Below are positions 16,393 to 28,197 of a stretch of DNA of 44,162 nucleotides, in pieces (within the stretch, counting starts at the first letter, position 1; each line of letters begins with the position of its first letter). The translations under genes and the position numbers were made by a program. The notes beneath the pieces were generated by a model. That model had not been told where the DNA came from. It ran no database searches and saw only the letters and a program-made list of their open reading frames with translations. The stretch is from a virus (Duplodnaviria; Heunggongvirae; Uroviricota; Caudoviricetes), in the IMG/VR virus record IMGVR_UViG_2541047704_000003, one strand, 5' to 3'.

Positions 16393-16755
16393 GTGAATAC
16401 CTACAGCATCACATTACCCTGGCCTCCGAGCAATAATCGCTATTACCGCCATAATCGCGGGCGCACGCACGTCAGCGCAGAGGGGCAGGCATACCGCGAT
16501 AACGTCGCCCGAATCATTAAAAACGCAATGCTGGATATCGGCCTGGCTATGCCTGTGAAAATCCGCATTGAGTGCCACATGCCGGATCGCCGTCGCCGTG
16601 ACCTGGATAATCTGCAAAAAGCCGCTTTTGACGCACTCACTAAAGCAGGTTTCTGGCTGGATGATGCTCAGGTCGTTGATTACCGCGTTGTGAAGATGCC
16701 TGTTACCAAAGGTGGGAGGCTGGAACTGACCATCACCGAAATGGGGAATGAATGA
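16393..16755 (+). CDS. rusA: RusA Holliday-junction resolvase
   Basis: 120-aa ORF (GTG start) [31 protein letters not shown]... matching E. coli DLP12 RusA. Confidence 0.9.
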
Positions 16756-16892
16756 TGTTTGAGTTTAATATGGCAGAACTTCTTCGCCACCGCTGGGGGC
16801 GTCTGCGCTTATATCGTTTCCTCGGTTCTGTTTTGACCGATTACCGAATACTGAAGAATTACGCCAAAACCCTGACAGGAACAGGAGTATGA
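16752..16892 (+). CDS. ylcG: YlcG-like small protein
   Basis: 46-codon [26 protein letters not shown]... overlapping rusA stop; matches recollection of DLP12 ylcG. Confidence 0.45.
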
Positions 16893-16962
16893 AGTCAGAG
16901 ATAACAATCAACTAATACTGTTTTGTTGATTTTTGCTTGTAATTGGCGTTCTGGTCTGATTT

Positions 16963-17361
16963 TTGTGGAGTAAGTTGATGCGTGATATTCAGATGGTTCT
17001 TGAGCGTTGGGGTGCGTGGGCGGCTAATAATCATGAAGATGTGACCTGGTCGTCCATTGCCGCCGGTTTTAAGGGATTAATTCCTTCAAAAGTAAAATCT
17101 CGCCCGCAATGTTGTGACGATGACGCGATGATCATTTGCGGGTGCATGGCCCGTCTGAAAAAGAACAACAGCGATTTACACGATTTATTAGTAGATTATT
17201 ATGTATGTGGTATGACATTCATGTCACTGGCAAGTAAGCATTGCTGCTCGGATGGTTATATCGGGAAAAGGTTACAGAAGGCTGAGGGCATAATTGAAGG
17301 GATGTTAATGGCATTAGATATCCGGTTAGATATGGATATCGTTGCTAATAATTCTAATTGA
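16963..17361 (+). CDS. Q: late-gene antiterminator Q
   Basis: 132-aa ORF (probable start at MRDIQMV, 16978) with Cys-rich zinc-binding region ([17 protein letters not shown]); position upstream of lysis genes; resembles DLP12 QuuD-type Q. Confidence 0.75.
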
Positions 17362-17498
17362 TATGCAATTGTTTACTAAAAGTTATTAAAAATGGGGCGT
17401 GGAAACGCCCCCAAAATAAAGGGTAATATATAACAGAAGGTTTATATAGTAAGAAGCAAGGTAGTGCTTCTAAAGGAAGTGGCTTGAGGGCTCCACTT

Positions 17499-17540
17499 AT
17501 ATGTTGCGGAGGCAAAGCCTCCCGCAACATATCTTTTTCG
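17499..17540 (+). terminator. strong rho-independent terminator downstream of Q (tR'-like); also abuts the porin stop
   Basis: 15-bp stem ATATGTTGCGGAGGC-AAA-GCCTCC(C)GCAACATAT followed by CTTTTTCG; ~140 nt after Q stop. Confidence 0.5.
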
Positions 17541-17549
17541 TAAGTCAGA

Positions 17550-18632
17550 TTAGAACTGATAAACCAGACCTACAGCGACGATGTCGTCGGTATCAATACC
17601 AGCTGTTTTGGTAAACTTACTATCGTCAATTAAGTTGATTTTGTAATCAACAAAAGTGGACATGTTTTTATTAAAGTAGTAAGTAGCACCGACATCGACA
17701 TACTTGACTAAGTCTCGGTCACCATGAACACCAAGGTCTTTACCTTTTGACTGAAGGTAAGCAACAGATGGACGCAGACCGAAGTCAAACTGATATTGTG
17801 CTACTGCTTCAAAGTTTTGTGCTTTGTTTGCAATATGGTTATTACCAAAAACGGTCATATTCTGAGTTTCAGAATATGTGGTAGCCAGATAGATATTGTT
17901 CGCATCATATTTCAGGCCTGCAGCCCATACTTCCGCATTTTTGCCGGAGGCATTGAATTTGCTCTTACCATAGGCGACCTGACCGTCAGTGCGATCTGAT
18001 TTAGCATAGGTTGCACCCACGCCGAATCCTTCATACTCATAAGTAGTGGAGAAACCGAAACCATCACCATTGGCTTCAGTTACGTCAGTGCGGTCATTTT
18101 TACCCTGATACTGAGCAGCAAAGTTCAGGCCATCGACCAGACCAAAGAAGTCGTTGTTACGATAAGTTGCAACACCAGTAGTGCGACCAGTCATGAACAC
18201 ATCTGTTTGGGTCCAGGTATCACCACCGAATTCTGGCAGAACGTCAGTCCACGCACCGATGTCGTATGCTACACCGTAGTTACGGCCGTAATCGATTGAG
18301 CCGTAATCACCAAATTTCAGGCCTGCAAATGCAAGACGGGTTTTGTCTTTGGAAGAACCTTGAGATTCAGCACGGTTGCCTTTGAATTCATATTCCCACT
18401 GACCGAAACCAGTCAGTTGATCGTTGATTTGGGTTTCACCTTTGAAGCCAAGACGGGCATAAGTAGTATCACCATCATCTGCATCATTAGAGGAGAAGTA
18501 GTGCTTGGCATTAACTTTCCCGTATAGATCCAGCTTGTTACTGTCTTTATTATAAATTTCAGCTGCCTGAGCAGACATCGCCATCAGTACTGATGCAGCT
18601 ACAGCAGAAATTGCCACTGTTAATTTTTTCAT
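17550..18632 (-). CDS. general outer-membrane porin (OmpC/OmpF/NmpC family)
   Basis: signal peptide [23 protein letters not shown], porin-family N-terminus [18 protein letters not shown]-terminal ...VGLVYQF ending in Phe; located between Q and lysis genes on the opposite strand as nmpC is in DLP12. Confidence 0.9.
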
Positions 18633-19058
18633 TGTACGCCCTTTTTTTGAACTTTTATTAAAAAATGATGTCACTGCGCGATAAATATTCATCTAATCAA
18701 TGTGATTATTTCAAGATGTAAGTTTTAGTTTCTCATTTAATTTGTGAAGTAGATCTCTATTTTTATCTGAACCTTTTCTATCTAATCCTATTCATGGCTC
18801 TTGTCTGAACAAAAATAAATCTATTAGCTAATTTATATTAATGGCACTTATTTATAAGTGCTCTATAATTCTTTAGCTTAATTTAAACAAACTAAAAATA
18901 ACATCGGAAATTATTAACTGGTTATTTGTTGAAGTTTTCTTATGCATTTGTGGTGGTGTTTTGAACACTCGGTGGCATTCTCACAAATATCATTTAGTAG
19001 TTTACGTACGTAAAAAATTGGTTATGCTGTTAAGAGTGGTTACTTCGTCACACAGCTT

Positions 19059-19090
19059 AAACCCGCCGTCGAGCGGGTTTTTCCATTTTT
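19059..19090 (+). terminator. rho-independent terminator-like hairpin upstream of holin
   Basis: AAACCCGC-CGTCGA-GCGGGTTT followed by TTCCATTTTTT. Confidence 0.45.
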
Positions 19091-19220
19091 TGAGTCTCGA
19101 TATTAGCTGATAACCCAATACCTGAGTTATTCACTGACTCCGAATCTGTTACGTTTCTGCCTTTATTGCGATACGTAGTATCCCCTTAATTTACACCCGC
19201 TTTGTCTGCGAGGTGGGGTT

Positions 19221-19436
19221 ATGAAATCCATGGATAAGTTAACAACGGGTGTCGCCTATGGTACCTCAGCAGGTAGTGCCGGGTACTGGTTTTTACAGTT
19301 GCTCGATAAAGTCACGCCCTCACAGTGGGCGGCAATAGGTGTGCTGGGTAGCCTGGTATTTGGCCTGCTGACGTACCTGACAAACCTTTATTTCAAGATT
19401 AAAGAAGATAAGCGCAAGGCTGCGAGAGGTGAATAA
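19221..19436 (+). CDS. class II holin / pinholin (phage 21 S-like, dual start MKSM)
   Basis: 71-aa ORF with two transmembrane segments and dual-start motif Met1-Lys-Ser-Met4; immediately precedes SAR endolysin. Confidence 0.8.
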
Positions 19437-19933
19437 TGCCTCCATCATTACGAAAAGCCGTTGCTGCTGCTATTGGTGGCGGAGCAATTGCTATAGCATC
19501 AGTGTTAATCACTGGCCCAAGTGGTAACGATGGTCTGGAAGGTGTCAGCTACATACCATACAAAGATATTGTTGGTGTATGGACTGTATGTCACGGGCAT
19601 ACAGGAAAAGACATCATGCTCGGTAAAACGTATACCAAAGCAGAATGCAAAGCCCTCCTGAATAAAGACCTTGCCACGGTCGCCAGACAAATTAACCCGT
19701 ACATCAAAGTCGATATACCGGAAACAATGCGCGGCGCTCTTTACTCATTCGTTTACAACGTGGGTGCTGGCAATTTCAGAACATCGACGCTTCTTCGCAA
19801 AATAAACCAGGGCGATATCAAAGGCGCATGTGATCAGCTACGTCGCTGGACATATGCTGGCGGTAAGCAATGGAAAGGTCTCATGACTCGTCGTGAGATT
19901 GAGCGTGAAATCTGTTTGTGGGGTCAGCAATGA
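19436..19933 (+). CDS. SAR endolysin (phage lysozyme)
   Basis: 165-aa ORF; N-terminal Gly/Ala-rich weakly hydrophobic segment [20 protein letters not shown] typical of signal-anchor-release endolysins, followed by lysozyme-like domain. Confidence 0.85.
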
Positions 19934-20391
19934 ACAGAGTAACCGCGATTATCTCCGCTCTGGTTATCTGCATCATCGTCTGCCTGTCATGGGCTGTTAA
20001 TCATTACCGTGATAACGCCATTACCTACAAAGCCCAGCGCGACAAAAATGCCAGAGAACTGACGCTGGCGAACGCGGCAATTACTGACATACAGATGCGT
20101 CAGCGTGATGTTGCTGCGCTCGATGCAAAATACACGAAGGAGTTAGCTGATGCGAAAGCTGAAAATGATGCTCTGCGTGATGATGTTGCCGCTGGTCGTC
20201 GTCGGTTGCACATCAAAGCAGTCTGTCAGTCAGTGCGTGAAGCCACCACCGCCTCCGGCGTGGATAATGCAGCCTCCCCCCGACTGGCAGACACCGCTGA
20301 ACGGGATTATTTCACCCTCAGAGAGAGGCTGATCACTATGCAAAAACAACTGGAAGGAACCCAGAAGTATATTAATGAGCAGTGCAGATAG
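19930..20391 (+). CDS. Rz spanin (inner-membrane subunit)
   Basis: ORF overlapping endolysin stop; N-terminal transmembrane segment then coiled-coil region; contains embedded Rz1. Confidence 0.75.
20150..20332 (+). CDS. Rz1 spanin (outer-membrane lipoprotein), embedded in Rz in another frame
   Basis: 60-aa ORF with lipobox VVGC and proline-rich mature region ([15 protein letters not shown]). Confidence 0.75.
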
Positions 20392-20422: not shown

Positions 20423-20716
20423 TTATTGTGAGCAATACACACGCGCTTCCAGCGGAGTATAAATGCCTAAAGTAATAAAACCGAGCAATCCATTTACGAA
20501 TGTTTGCTGGGTTTCTGTTTTAACAACATTTTCTGCACCACCACAAATTTTTGCTGCATCGACAGTTTTCTTCTGCCCAATTCCCGAAACGAAGAAATGA
20601 TGGGTGATGGTTTCCTTTGGTGTTACTGCTGTAGGTTTGTTTCCAACAGTAAACGTCTGTTGAGCACATCCTGTAATAAGCATTGCCAGAGCGGCAGAAA
20701 ACAACATTTTTTTCAT
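20423..20716 (-). CDS. bor: Bor outer-membrane lipoprotein (serum resistance)
   Basis: 97-aa frame MKKMLFSAALAMLITGCAQQTFTVGNKP... matching lambda Bor; lipobox ITGC. Confidence 0.85.
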   Translation of the reverse strand: MKKMLFSAALAMLITGCAQQTFTVGNKPTAVTPKETITHHFFVSGIGQKKTVDAAKICGGAENVVKTETQQTFVNGLLGFITLGIYTPLEARVYCSQ

Positions 20717-21196
20717 CTTATTATCCTGCATTGTTAAAAACGGCAGAATCCTATGTGACAACAATTAAACGATAGTTAAATGGATTGATGAAAATTAAAA
20801 CTACACAGGTGGGCTCAGACTATTGGAGGAAGTTGGGGACACTCAGAATCCTGTGGAATGAAATAAACCGGTCTATCCGTCCATTACCCTTTTAGCTGCG
20901 CTGTATCGTCGCCGTATTCCCGCATTAACCATGACCGTAGCCCGACGGGGAATTCCTTCTGCGTGAGTGTGCGGGAATAATTAAAAACGATGCACACCGG
21001 GTTTTTACCGCGTTAATGATTCGCGGGTTTATCCCGGTGCGATGGTGGAAGAAACAGGAAGCTGTATTACAGAAAGTGCTACTACTGTATCCCGATGCGA
21101 TGTATGTAATGTGAGTCAGATAATGGCACAGGATGTGGTGATGTGGCAGTCTGGAACACAGGATATATTGTCAGAATAAGACCCGTAGGAATAAAA

Positions 21197-21523
21197 ATGA
21201 AAAGACGCCTTTTACTACTTTTTCTGTTATCTGTCCTGGCAGTGGGATGCTCGCAGCAAAAAGCTGATGAGCCCCGGCAATTAGTGACGGTGTATCCACG
21301 ATATCCGGAATATGCTGCAGCAAATTATATCAAGGGGCTGGTTGAGGTTAAGTTCGATATTGGTGCTGATGGGACTGTGACACGGATCGTTTTTCTCCGC
21401 TCAGAGCCTCATAATTTGTTTCGTGATGAAGTGGTGAAGGCCATGGCGAAATGGCGATTTGAAAAGAATCGCCCCTGTCAGGGAGTGAAGAGACAATTTA
21501 TCTTTACGCCGTCACGTCCTTGA
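21197..21523 (+). CDS. lipoprotein with TonB C-terminal-like domain
   Basis: lipobox LAVGC after signal peptide; YPRYPEYAAANYIKGLVEVKFDIGADGTV...AMAKWRFE resembles the TonB_C/energy-transducer fold signature; AGGA ribosome-binding site upstream. Confidence 0.55.
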   Translation: MKRRLLLLFLLSVLAVGCSQQKADEPRQLVTVYPRYPEYAAANYIKGLVEVKFDIGADGTVTRIVFLRSEPHNLFRDEVVKAMAKWRFEKNRPCQGVKRQFIFTPSRP

Positions 21524-26702: not shown

Positions 26703-28197
26703 TCTTTCACACATTATTGCCGCAGCATTCAATGAACCGCTGCTTCTGGAGCCCGCCTATGCGCGGGTTTTCTTTTGCGCGCTCGGGCGCGAGATGGGGG
26801 CAGCAAGTCTTTCGGTACCACAACAGCAGGTACAGTTTGATGCTCCCGGAATGCTGGCTGAAACGGACGAGTACATGGCCGGAGGTAAACGACCGGCCCG
26901 TGTTTACCGGGTGGTGAACGGTATTGCTGTACTGCCGGTGACCGGCACGCTGGTGCACCGGCTGGGTGGTATGCGGCCATTTTCCGGAATGACAGGCTAT
27001 GACGGCATTGTCGCCTGTCTTCAGCAGGCAATGGCGGATAGCCAGGTGCGGGGCGTACTGCTGGACATTGACAGTCCGGGCGGGCAGGCCGCCGGCGCGT
27101 TTGACTGCGCTGACATGATTTACCGCCTCCGTCAGCAGAAGCCGGTCTGGGCACTGTGCAATGACACGGCCTGTTCTGCAGCCATGCTGCTGGCGTCGGC
27201 CTGCTCCCGACGGCTGGTTACCCAGACATCCCGTATCGGCTCCATTGGCGTGATGATGAGCCATGTCAGCTATGCCGGTCATCTGGCGCAGGCCGGTGTG
27301 GATATCACGCTGATTTACTCAGGGGCGCACAAGGTGGATGGCAATCAGTTTGAAGCGTTGCCGGCAGAGGTTCGCCAGGACATGCAGCAGCGGATTGATG
27401 CGGCGCGCCGGATGTTTGCCGAAAAAGTGGCGATGTATACCGGTCTGTCTGTTGATGCCGTCACGGGAACAGAGGCTGCCGTTTTTGAAGGTCAGTCCGG
27501 CATTGAGGCCGGGCTGGCGGATGAATTAATCAATGCGTCGGATGCCATCAGTGTGATGGCCACGGCGCTGAACAGTAATGTCAGAGGAGGCACTATGCCG
27601 CAATTAACTGCAACGGAAGCCGCCGCGCAGGAGAACCAGCGAGTGATGGGGATCCTGACATGCCAGGAAGCGAAAGGACGTGAACAGCTTGCCACGATGC
27701 TGGCAGGGCAACAGGGCATGAGCGTTGAACAGGCCCGGGCGATTCTGGCCGCGGCGGCACCGCAGCAGCCGGTGGCATCCGCGCAGAGTGAAGCCGATCG
27801 CATTATGGCGTGTGAAGAAGCGAACGGTCGTGAACAACTGGCGGCAACGCTGGCGGCGATGCCGGAGATGACGGTGGAAAAAGCCCGCCCGATCCTGGCT
27901 GCTTCACCGCAGGCGGATGCCGGACCATCACTCCGTGATCAGATCATGGCACTGGATGAGGCAAAAGGGGCTGAGGCGCAGGCTGAACAGCTGGCTGCCT
28001 GCCCGGGAATGACAGTGGAGAGCGCCCGGGCTGTGCTGGCTGCGGGATCAGGTAAGGCAGAACCGGTCTCTGCATCCACAACCGCCCTGTTTGAACATTT
28101 CATGGCGAACCATTCACCGGCAGCGGTACAGGGTGGCGTGGCACAGACGTCAGCAGACGGTGATGCGGACGTGAAAATGCTCATGGCCATGCCATGA
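26692..28197 (+). CDS. C: head maturation protease / scaffold (C with in-frame Nu3 region)
   Basis: 501-aa ORF; N-terminal ClpP/S49-like protease region matches lambda gpC; C-terminal scaffold region carries three diverged copies of a ~49-aa motif. Confidence 0.85.
   Translation: MRRNLSHIIAAAFNEPLLLEPAYARVFFCALGREMGAASLSVPQQQVQFDAPGMLAETDEYMAGGKRPARVYRVVNGIAVLPVTGTLVHRLGGMRPFSGMTGYDGIVACLQQAMADSQVRGVLLDIDSPGGQAAGAFDCADMIYRLRQQKPVWALCNDTACSAAMLLASACSRRLVTQTSRIGSIGVMMSHVSYAGHLAQAGVDITLIYSGAHKVDGNQFEALPAEVRQDMQQRIDAARRMFAEKVAMYTGLSVDAVTGTEAAVFEGQSGIEAGLADELINASDAISVMATALNSNVRGGTMPQLTATEAAAQENQRVMGILTCQEAKGREQLATMLAGQQGMSVEQARAILAAAAPQQPVASAQSEADRIMACEEANGREQLAATLAAMPEMTVEKARPILAASPQADAGPSLRDQIMALDEAKGAEAQAEQLAACPGMTVESARAVLAAGSGKAEPVSASTTALFEHFMANHSPAAVQGGVAQTSADGDADVKMLMAMP

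Follow-up and report, generated by a model that had tools for sequence, protein, structure and literature searches.

Position of the late promoter relative to the porin gene in the Q–porin–lysis region of a DLP12/PA-2-type prophage

Where does late transcription start in a prophage whose lysis genes are separated from the antiterminator gene Q by a complete porin gene in the opposite orientation, and does the RNA polymerase have to cross that gene antisense on its way to the holin? The question is raised by a viral DNA of 44,162 nucleotides (IMG/VR record IMGVR_UViG_2541047704_000003; hereafter the window, to which all coordinates refer), which has an overall GC content of 50% and carries a full complement of head and tail genes. 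The preliminary description of this DNA placed the late promoter pR′ directly after Q and its terminator tR′ at 17499–17540, and had Q-modified transcription run through the porin gene to reach the lysis genes. The features that it listed were all recovered, at the positions it gave, by Pfam searches, folding and inspection of the ORFs (Table 1). The transcription map derived from them is corrected here.

The region is the Q–porin–lysis part of a DLP12/PA-2-type lambdoid prophage of E. coli, and it is well known already. The E. coli strains CFT073 and Nissle 1917 carry this stretch of the window with 100% identity. Of 5426 complete E. coli genomes, 2393 (~44%) share its layout, as do the DLP12 prophage of K-12 (quuD–nmpC::IS5–essD) and phage PA-2 (lc). 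Each element of the region has been described before, so that no new question is opened by them. We consider it probable that a cargo of 1.7 kb sits between the Q gene and the cassette that is Q's own target, and that the late switch is contained entirely in positions 19001–19090. The late switch of a very common prophage type, whose carriers include the probiotic Nissle 1917 and the uropathogen CFT073, would then lie directly before the holin, and the porin would be cargo outside the late operon. This corrected map is relevant to annotation and engineering, as for example in case of lysis control in Nissle, and also bears on the reading of porin and IpeX effects at the outer membrane.

Table 1. 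Features of the Q–porin–lysis region, in window coordinates
Feature	Position	Strand	Basis
Late-gene antiterminator Q (QuuD type; Q21/Q933W family)	16978–17361	+	Pfam PF06530, E 7e-54
Porin "moron" (Q tail, two terminators, porin 3′ UTR, porin gene, porin regulatory region)	17311–18997		blastn breakpoints
Intrinsic terminator of the porin transcript (hairpin 17411–17394, U-run to 17388)	17388–17411	−	Terminator scan
Porin 3′ UTR, 162 nt	17388–17549	−	Porin stop to mapped 3′ end
Strong hairpin and T5 tract	17499–17546	+	Fold; on the minus strand a structured element in the porin 3′ UTR
Intact outer-membrane porin (NmpC/Lc/OmpD-like)	17550–18632	−	360 aa, Porin_1 E 2e-151
AT-rich porin regulatory region	18633–18997		GC 27.7%; porin-bearing phages only
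Probable late promoter pR′: −35 TTTACG (19001–19006), 16-bp spacer, −10 TATGCT (19023–19028)	19001–19028	+	Alignment to VT2-Sakai and SC370, where a "putative late promoter" is annotated
Invariant block TAAGAGTGGTTAC with start site (A at 19035)	19031–19043	+	Candidate sigma-dependent pause/Q-loading region
Probable tR′ hairpin and T-run	19059–19090	+	Scan match, fold, position
Lysis cassette: S21-type holin, endolysin, Rz spanin (Rz1 embedded)	19221–20391	+	PF04971, PF00959, PF03245; essD, rrrD, rzpD in annotated relatives

The Q gene and its family

The homologue of the Q gene is annotated quuD in CFT073 and K-12. The encoded protein is 81% identical over 120 aa to Q of VT2-Sakai (Shiga-toxin phages 933W/VT2-Sakai) and has a distant match to the Q21 structures 6P18/6JNX (E 4e-8). 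A Q of the phage 82 type was assumed at first. Three features characterize the pR′ of phage 82, namely a start at AAA, a pause element resembling an extended −10, and GCC at +15–17 (PMC5001585). None of them found a counterpart here, and the lead was dropped because the Pfam and PDB matches place the protein in the Q21/Q933W family. Control of the DLP12 lysis genes by Q is cited in PMC7918800. The final ~7 codons of Q fall within the inserted segment that carries the porin (see below). A plus-strand start site found inside quuD of K-12 by Cappable-seq (score 9.3) corresponds to window position 17205.

The probable late promoter cassette upstream of the holin

The counterpart of the late promoter of the Shiga-toxin phages is found downstream of the porin gene. 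The 85 bp segment 18998–19082 is 78% identical to Sakai DNA in which a late promoter, qut and a terminator are annotated. The block TAAGAGTGGTTAC shows no differences among the porin phages, SfII and the Stx phages, whose sequences are ~75% identical outside it. Within the block, the start site predicted from the promoter, 7 nt past the −10 sequence, is exactly the base at which a K-12 transcription start was mapped by Cappable-seq (576452 in U00096.2, 577229 in NC_000913.3, window 19035). An offset of +777 between the two K-12 coordinate systems is our assumption, and it is backed by this exact coincidence of mapped and predicted base. The start site lies inside the interval 18700–19200, which the preliminary description had itself named as the place where a late promoter would contradict its model.

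The promoter spacer includes the conserved CGTAAAAA, a candidate Q-binding element. Sequence conservation points to two candidate Q-binding sequences, the palindrome TTACGTACGTAA and this spacer motif, which reads CG(T/C)AAAAA. For Q21 a pair of 8-bp direct repeats has been described, which was not evident in the cassette. Members of the Q21 family have their Q-binding element within −40 to −1 of pR′, and a σ70-dependent pause is found near the start (bioRxiv 10.1101/651190). At +2 to +9 the sequence GTGGTTAC is invariant, though a poor match to the −10 hexamer TATAAT. Q would be expected to bind at the conserved spacer and the early transcribed block and to load there onto a paused RNA polymerase.

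The promoter is followed by a hairpin (stem 19059–19080, T-run to 19090) with a fold of −12 kcal/mol (z = −2.2; 4 of 200 shuffled sequences were as stable). It is the only plus-strand terminator-like site identified by the scan between pR′ and the holin, none being present in 19091–19220. The late switch would thus consist of a σ70 promoter with its start at 19035 and a hairpin-plus-U terminator about 25–55 nt downstream. In the absence of Q, transcripts would end after about 52 nt, while in its presence the polymerase would continue into the holin and the remaining late genes. The lysis cassette provides the first late genes, and its start with the S21-type holin at 19221 (PF04971) agrees with what had been described. 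The hairpin 19059–19090 had been noticed before as a second terminator standing in the way of late transcription; it is present, as the hairpin of the promoter cassette itself. Because late promoter and terminator are both downstream of the porin, just before the holin, late transcription need not cross the porin gene, and the antisense passage proposed earlier gives way to a homologue of the mapped 933W/Sakai PR′ at 19001–19043.

The linkage between this cassette and the type of Q is directly supported by a survey of 120 IMG/VR viral loci chosen by the cassette core sequence. Wherever at least about 1.6 kb precede the cassette in a locus, the same Q type was found upstream on the same strand, at distances that fall into discrete classes (70, ~520, ~610, ~810–920, ~1090, ~1650–1670 and 3045 bp). 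Conversely, of 72 loci whose Q is closely related and which extend far enough downstream, 71 have the core beyond the porin. Where a porin is present among the 120 loci, it is always 375–379 bp upstream of the core and on the opposite strand, never downstream. Only the ~90-bp cassette is conserved, being kept in all 34 sequence variants, while both of its flanks vary between the classes.

A different assignment is suggested by the strength of the K-12 start sites. The one at 19035 is weak (Cappable-seq score 1.7), whereas a plus-strand site 370 nt upstream, divergent from the porin (576081 in U00096.2, window 18665), has a score of 90. SMRT-Cappable-seq lists no entry for the locus. The main lysis promoter could then be a strong plus-strand promoter near the porin start (18665, or an RpoE-type "essDp" at ~18681), with Q acting on those transcripts and 19035 left as a minor relic. 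A σE-like motif (GAACTT-16-TCACT) is seen in the sequence at 18649–18675, and published DLP12 work reportedly places a Q- and RpoE-responsive "essDp" near window 18681. In particular, Pasqua 2021 cites control of the DLP12 lysis genes by Q and RpoE, and its lysis-promoter fragment, "−121 to +650", has its forward primer at window 18560–18579 and its +1 at ~18681. Furthermore, the Q protein of phage 82 is able in vitro to load onto a paused complex that is distal to the promoter (PMC4914094). However, the region that holds these promoters is part of the porin insertion and is missing in Stx phages, SfII and the other insert classes, all of which keep the Q type and the cassette, and Q loading in this family uses the promoter-proximal element and pause described above. 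The K-12 prophage is also defective, so that its promoter strengths may misrepresent those of an inducible phage. We regard this assignment as unlikely; even if it were true, the promoter would still be downstream of the porin gene.

It is also rather improbable that the hairpin 19059–19090 is an ineffective terminator, conserved as part of a pause/loading signal or of a small RNA, and that the lysis genes are not tightly gated by Q. The Sakai PR′ transcripts do pass the homologous hairpin, to +258; the fold is modest, a G-to-T change that weakens the stem is found in about a quarter of the cassette loci, and K-12 Term-seq lists no plus-strand 3′ end at 19085–19090. Against this, the hairpin has no competitor as a terminator between promoter and holin, and its stem, followed by 5–8 T, is retained in 34 of 34 cassette variants. 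A holin left ungated behind a constitutive promoter would be harmful, and RNAs as short as ~50 nt are easily lost in the datasets cited. A late switch formed by pR′ and a terminator at 19059–19090 is accordingly the reading that we retain, with efficient termination there being what we infer from structure and position.

The porin segment between Q and its cassette

The breakpoints of the porin segment are defined directly by blastn. Window 16976–17310 corresponds to positions 780–1114 of the Sakai locus L003, and window 18998–19082 to its positions 1201–1284, so that the 86 bp found between Q and pR′ in Sakai are replaced here by 1687 bp. From this sequence comparison the segment 17311–18997 reads as an insertion ("moron") between Q and pR′. 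Its GC content is 28–43%, compared to the 50% of the window, its flanking parts are confined to porin-bearing phages, and other phages hold alternative inserts at the same Q/cassette junction. Morons, described in the literature as independent cargo units of promoter, gene and terminator, share with it the features of a discrete insertion of lower GC content with its own terminator, present or absent between related phages, and probably also expression in the lysogen. They differ in that the present segment has its place between Q and pR′, at a junction which takes other cargo elsewhere; it is not part of the late operon and is oriented against it.

The strong hairpin and T-tract reported ~140 nt after Q was confirmed. 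It begins 137 nt past the Q stop codon, with its stem at 17499–17536 followed by CTTTTTCG, and has a fold of −21.9 kcal/mol on the plus strand (z = −5.7; none of 200 shuffled sequences as stable) and of −22.5 kcal/mol on the minus strand. A bulge in its stem caused it to escape a simple terminator scan. Five terminator-like sites were counted in the region, which does not exceed what shuffled sequences give (2.9 ± 2.1), and the case for this hairpin and for the one at 19059–19090 is therefore made by energy, position and conservation.

This first hairpin is not tR′, as had been proposed, and lies inside the porin 3′ UTR. A lambda-like arrangement, with pR′ within the ~137 nt after Q, tR′ at 17499–17540 and an antisense late run through the porin and the second terminator that silences the porin during lytic growth, has on its side the position directly after Q, as in phage lambda, the very stable hairpin followed by T5 and two AT-rich −10-like hexamers (TAATAT and TATAGT, at 17424–17450), but is highly improbable: no promoter-like site was identified by the scan in 17362–17499, no plus-strand Cappable-seq start site is found in the K-12 Q–nmpC spacer, the spacer is confined to porin phages (36 of 36 records) and missing from the Stx phages with the 81%-identical Q, the cognate cassette with its start at the predicted base is at 19001–19090, and the hairpin is inside a minus-strand transcript with mapped 3′ ends. 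The two hexamers, picked out by eye as candidate promoters, were rejected for want of support from the scan, the start-site data and conservation.

The minus-strand transcript is that of the porin. Its predicted intrinsic terminator (17388–17411; −13.8 kcal/mol, z = −3.2) coincides with the K-12 Term-seq 3′ ends 574367/574366 (window 17388/17387), and a second porin 3′ end on the minus strand (574476, window 17496) is at the base of the first hairpin. In the lysogen, the porin would be transcribed leftward from its own control region to the 17411–17388 terminator, with a 162-nt 3′ UTR that includes the large hairpin. On the plus strand the K-12 Term-seq data list no 3′ end at this hairpin (17546), and termination in this direction is accordingly proposed from structure: the hairpin most likely halts unmodified transcription leaving Q, and in the lysogen this would keep antisense transcription away from the porin. 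The transcription units of Q and porin are convergent and overlap by ~159 nt (17388–17546).

The 3′ UTR is shared with porin phages, among them PA-2 and phage 434B, at 92–100% identity, and with K-12 DLP12 at about 97%. IpeX RNA was reportedly located in the nmpC 3′ UTR by Castillo-Keller in 2006, and we take window 17388–17549, between stop codon and terminator, to be the IpeX RNA region of nmpC/lc. A role of IpeX as a regulator of ompC is cited second-hand in PMC3333887. An RNA starting at 17205 and ending at the T-tract at 17546 would be fully complementary to the IpeX 3′ UTR. It is conceivable, if doubtful, that this ~340-nt plus-strand RNA, or read-through of the early operon after induction, acts as a phage-encoded antidote that pairs with IpeX and so alters, between lysogeny and induction, the repression of the host porins OmpC and OmpF by the prophage. 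A search of 16500–19700 against Rfam gave only two sub-threshold chance matches (sau-19, Trp leader); Rfam holds neither an IpeX nor a late-leader family.

The porin ORF is intact (17550–18632, minus strand, 360 aa), as first described, and its product shares 91% identity with the Lc protein of phage PA-2; in relatives it is annotated ompC/NmpC/OmpD. It is presumably the locus nmpC/c1560 of CFT073. Both mRNA and protein of nmpC/c1560 were detected in that strain, at higher levels at 37 °C (PMC12890032). The region upstream of the porin is AT-rich as reported (GC 33% over 18633–19220, and 27.7% in 18633–18997), but it measures 588 bp and not ~530 bp. The promoter scan gave no minus-strand match for the porin in this region, where the old PA-2 record carries a CRP-site annotation. 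The view of the porin as a separately expressed lysogenic-conversion gene, already known, is supported by the AT-rich upstream region, by the terminator of its own with a K-12 3′ end and by the similarity to Lc.

Comparison with known systems

The closest well-studied relative is DLP12 (qsr′) of K-12, which shares gene order and orientation (quuD–nmpC–essD/rrrD/rzpD) and has the same cassette sequence at 19001–19090. Identity is 97% for the part with Q and the Q–porin spacer, and 92% for the part that extends from porin to lysis genes. DLP12 differs by the disruption of nmpC by IS5, where the porin of the window is intact, by 16 bp missing just upstream of the holin and by being defective, while the window has its full set of head and tail genes.

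The Q–PR′–tR′ cassette of 933W/VT2-Sakai, the source of StxS, shares with the window the Q family, promoter, start site and first hairpin of the cassette. It abuts Q in these phages, the promoter overlapping the Q stop codon; their cargo (tRNAs, stx) belongs to the late operon and follows the terminators, the second of which is found at +258. Sakai dRNA-seq and Term-seq define a PR′ transcript of 258 nt, and the Sakai base homologous to 19035, plus 257 nt, is the last T of this second terminator, where the 258-nt transcript ends. The Sakai hairpin homologous to tR′ is therefore read through at least partly. A StxS homologue was considered for the window and rejected, since the match to the 258-nt Sakai transcript ends after its first 47 nt and does not include the last 74 nt, which form the active StxS(S) part.

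With the pR′–6S RNA–tR′ system of lambda the cassette shares its logic, that of a constitutive promoter with a nearby terminator from which a promoter-loaded Q reads into S, R and Rz (PMC4914094; bioRxiv 10.1101/651190). Lambda Q belongs to an unrelated protein family and there is no sequence similarity. The lambda promoter is directly after Q, and its terminated RNA has 194 nt, compared to the ~52 nt expected here.

The lc locus of phage PA-2 (J02580) has the arrangement of the window over 2.8 kb at 91% nucleotide identity, including a 3′ UTR that matches the IpeX region, and differs in the loop regions of the porin. In the old PA-2 record, the equivalent of window 19035–19055 is annotated as a CRP site and not as the region transcribed from pR′.

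Genetic context of the Q-porin-lysis region

A complete lambdoid prophage makes up the window, with genes for an integrase, a cI-like repressor, a portal and a protease as well as the nin region, Q, the lysis genes and bor/iss. E. coli Nissle 1917, CFT073 and ATCC 25922 match the segment 16900-19300 at 100% identity, and of 5426 complete E. coli genomes 2393 contain at least 80% of it. RefSeq names its genes, in order, quuD, a porin gene ("ompC", on the opposite strand), essD, rrrD and rzpD. The same order is found in the K-12 cryptic prophage DLP12, whose porin gene nmpC is split by IS5, in phage PA-2, whose porin gene is lc, and in the sequenced 434B isolate. The region is ordinary among E. 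coli prophages, and every element of it is known: DLP12/PA-2 nmpC/lc, IpeX, 933W-type pR', S21-type lysis genes and morons have all been described. DLP12 lacks 16 bp found in the window at 19197-19212, a short way 5' of the holin ribosome-binding site (CTGCCTTTATTGCGAT or an equivalent register).

The layout given in the preliminary description (Q, two hairpins, an intact antisense porin gene, the holin start and an AT-rich spacer) is real throughout. The AT-richness upstream of the porin gene was confirmed (27.7% GC in 18633-18997 vs 50% window-wide), but the length of ~530 bp was not, as the AT-rich porin-holin spacer 18633-19220 measures 588 bp.

Features of the Q-to-holin region and cargo genes 3' of the lysis genes
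Feature	Position	Strand	Remarks
Q	16978-17361	+	PF06530
First hairpin	17499-17536		-21.9 kcal/mol, z -5.7, 0/200 shuffles as stable; followed by CTTTTTCG
Porin, intact, 360 aa	17550-18632	-	Porin_1
Second hairpin	19059-19080		-12 kcal/mol, z -2.2; followed by TTTTTCCATTTTTT
Holin, S21-type	start 19221	+	followed by lysozyme and Rz
Bor/Iss serum-resistance lipoprotein	20423-20764	-	cargo 3' of lysis genes
Small TonB C-terminal-domain protein	21143-21523	+	cargo 3' of lysis genes

The Q protein belongs to Pfam PF06530, by name the Q21/Q933W family (Yin et al.). It has a distant match to the solved Q21 structures (E 4e-8) and shares 81% identity, across 120 residues, with Q of the Shiga-toxin phage VT2-Sakai. 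An assignment to the Q of phage 82 is wrong.

The probable Q target downstream of the porin gene

A sensitive search of phage records with the porin-holin spacer as query matched 360 records. The whole spacer was covered in only 36 of them; nearly all others, mostly Stx phages, matched 18998-19082 alone, with 77-89% identity in most. The homologous segment lies directly 3' of Q in VT2-Sakai and SC370, where it is annotated as a putative late promoter pR', a qut site and a rho-independent terminator. The alignment gives a common -35 element (TTTACG), a conserved promoter spacer (CGTAAAAA), a -10 element reading TATGCT in the window vs TATCAT in Sakai, and an invariant TAAGAGTGGTTAC with a hairpin and T-run after it. 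The Q-binding element of the Q21 family is located within -40 to -1, a position that points to the conserved promoter spacer as the candidate element here. The blocks aligned by blastn are 16976-17310 (Sakai Q) and 18998-19082 (the Sakai cassette). The 86 bp between these breakpoints in Sakai correspond to 1687 bp in the window, so that the last Q codons, the porin gene, the porin control region and the porin 3' UTR form an insertion between Q and pR'.

The predicted pR' start is A19035, 7 nt past the -10 element, which maps to K-12 NC_000913.3 577229. This position equals U00096.2 576452, with an offset of +777 between the two genome versions. In the K-12 Cappable-seq list of Ettwiller et al., a plus-strand start of low score (1.7) stands exactly at 576452; a chance match to the very base is unlikely because the listed starts average ~1 per 570 nt on each strand. 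No plus-strand start is listed there in the quuD-nmpC spacer. The lambda-like pR'-tR' unit proposed immediately after Q, with late transcription forced antisense through the porin gene, is not supported, given this absence and the cassette at 19001-19090. The late promoter assigned here falls inside 18700-19200, an interval that the preliminary description had itself set against its reading. In Sakai the PR' start (dRNA-seq) and the transcript 3' end (Term-seq) are 258 nt apart (Sy et al.); the base homologous to A19035 is located 22 nt past the Q stop codon, and 257 nt further on is the last T of the second Sakai terminator.

A much stronger plus-strand start in the K-12 Cappable-seq data (score 90) is found at window 18665, divergent from the porin gene and 33 nt from its start codon. 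The +1 of the lysis-promoter fragment "-121 to +650" that Pasqua et al. used after Rueggeberg et al. (the published DLP12 "essDp") appears to map at ~18681, and a sigma-E-like motif (GAACTT-16-TCACT) adjoins both starts. This promoter belongs to the porin-specific insert and is not found in other phages that have this Q and cassette; we therefore regard it as a secondary, host-integrated input rather than the Q target. The lysis promoter is downstream of the porin gene either way.

To see whether the cassette goes with the Q type, IMG/VR was scanned for the cassette core, and 120 loci were analysed. A Q of this type was found upstream on the same strand in every locus whose upstream DNA extended to ~1.6 kb or beyond. 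The Q-to-core distances fall into classes of 70, ~520, ~610, ~810-920, ~1090, ~1650-1670 and 3045 bp, in which the gap is filled by different cargo; the classes have in common only ~90 bp, which run from the -35 element through the T-run, and are unrelated on both flanks. The porin gene, when present, always stands on the opposite strand, 375-379 bp upstream of the core, and in none of the 120 loci is it found between cassette and holin. In the converse search from the Q protein, the core lay beyond the porin gene in 71 of the 72 loci that had sufficient downstream sequence. The sole exception, L143, carries a 99%-identical Q and porin with no cassette core or holin within 6 kb downstream, and has probably undergone a deletion or rearrangement 3' of the porin gene. 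Other junction cargo in IMG/VR loci (e.g., L032, L112, L057, L059, L024, L050) includes, in one class, a 148-aa minus-strand lipoprotein, as well as a 109-aa secreted-looking protein and, in other classes, plus-strand ORFs of 160-240 aa with a common N-terminal motif. Shigella phage SfII has two minus-strand genes at this junction. The Q-pR' cassette junction looks like a recurrent insertion site.

Terminator-like hairpins

The hairpin at 19059-19090 belongs to the Q cassette and, as the sole terminator-like site that the terminator scan found between pR' and the holin gene, is the leading tR' candidate. An RNA ended there would be ~52 nt long. Its Sakai homologue is passed by at least some polymerase, on to +258. 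The hairpin at 17499-17546 was rejected as tR': it has no promoter ahead of it, it accompanies the porin gene and not Q, and it falls within a minus-strand transcript. Read on the plus strand, it could plausibly act, via its T-tract, as a stop for unmodified transcription leaving Q. K-12 Term-seq lists no plus-strand 3' ends at either hairpin, and K-12 plus-strand expression is low there. A hairpin with a T-run similar to the tR' hairpin (GAGCCCGCCTATGCGCGGGTTTTCTTTT, 26751-26773, plus strand) is found in the 5' portion of the gene for the S49 head protease, in the late operon.

Porin expression and possible antisense transcripts

Reading the porin, 91% identical to Lc, as a conversion gene with its own expression is correct and has long been established. 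CFT073 nmpC/c1560, probably this locus, was detected as mRNA and protein (PMC12890032).

Minus-strand Term-seq 3' ends in K-12 (Adams et al.) are located at 574367/574366 and 574476. The former correspond to window 17388/17387, the end of a U-run after a small hairpin (17411-17394), and the latter to 17496, at the base of the large hairpin. Because the 3' ends map to 17388/17387, the porin transcript has a 3' UTR of 162 nt, large hairpin included. This UTR is the region described as IpeX, which is cited as a regulator of OmpC.

A quuD-internal plus-strand start in the K-12 Cappable-seq data (window 17205; U00096.2 573406, score 9.3) adjoins a TTTACA-16-TATTAT sequence found by scanning. Its transcript would run ~340 nt to the T-tract at 17546, antisense to the entire porin 3' UTR. 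The convergent Q-side and porin transcripts would overlap by 159 nt, where, speculatively, the 17205 RNA, complementary to IpeX, might modulate it. Antisense RNA across the porin gene could still arise from other sources: by analogy with lambda, from antiterminated early transcription through Q after induction, or from the internal plus-strand starts found by K-12 Cappable-seq at window 17692 (score 16.8) and 18046 (score 2.8).

The PA-2 GenBank record (1986; L008 1730-1750) labels as a CRP-binding site the segment 19035-19055. These are exactly the 21 nt with which transcription from pR' begins, and their minus-strand sequence, TGTGACGAAGTAACCA, partly resembles a CRP site.
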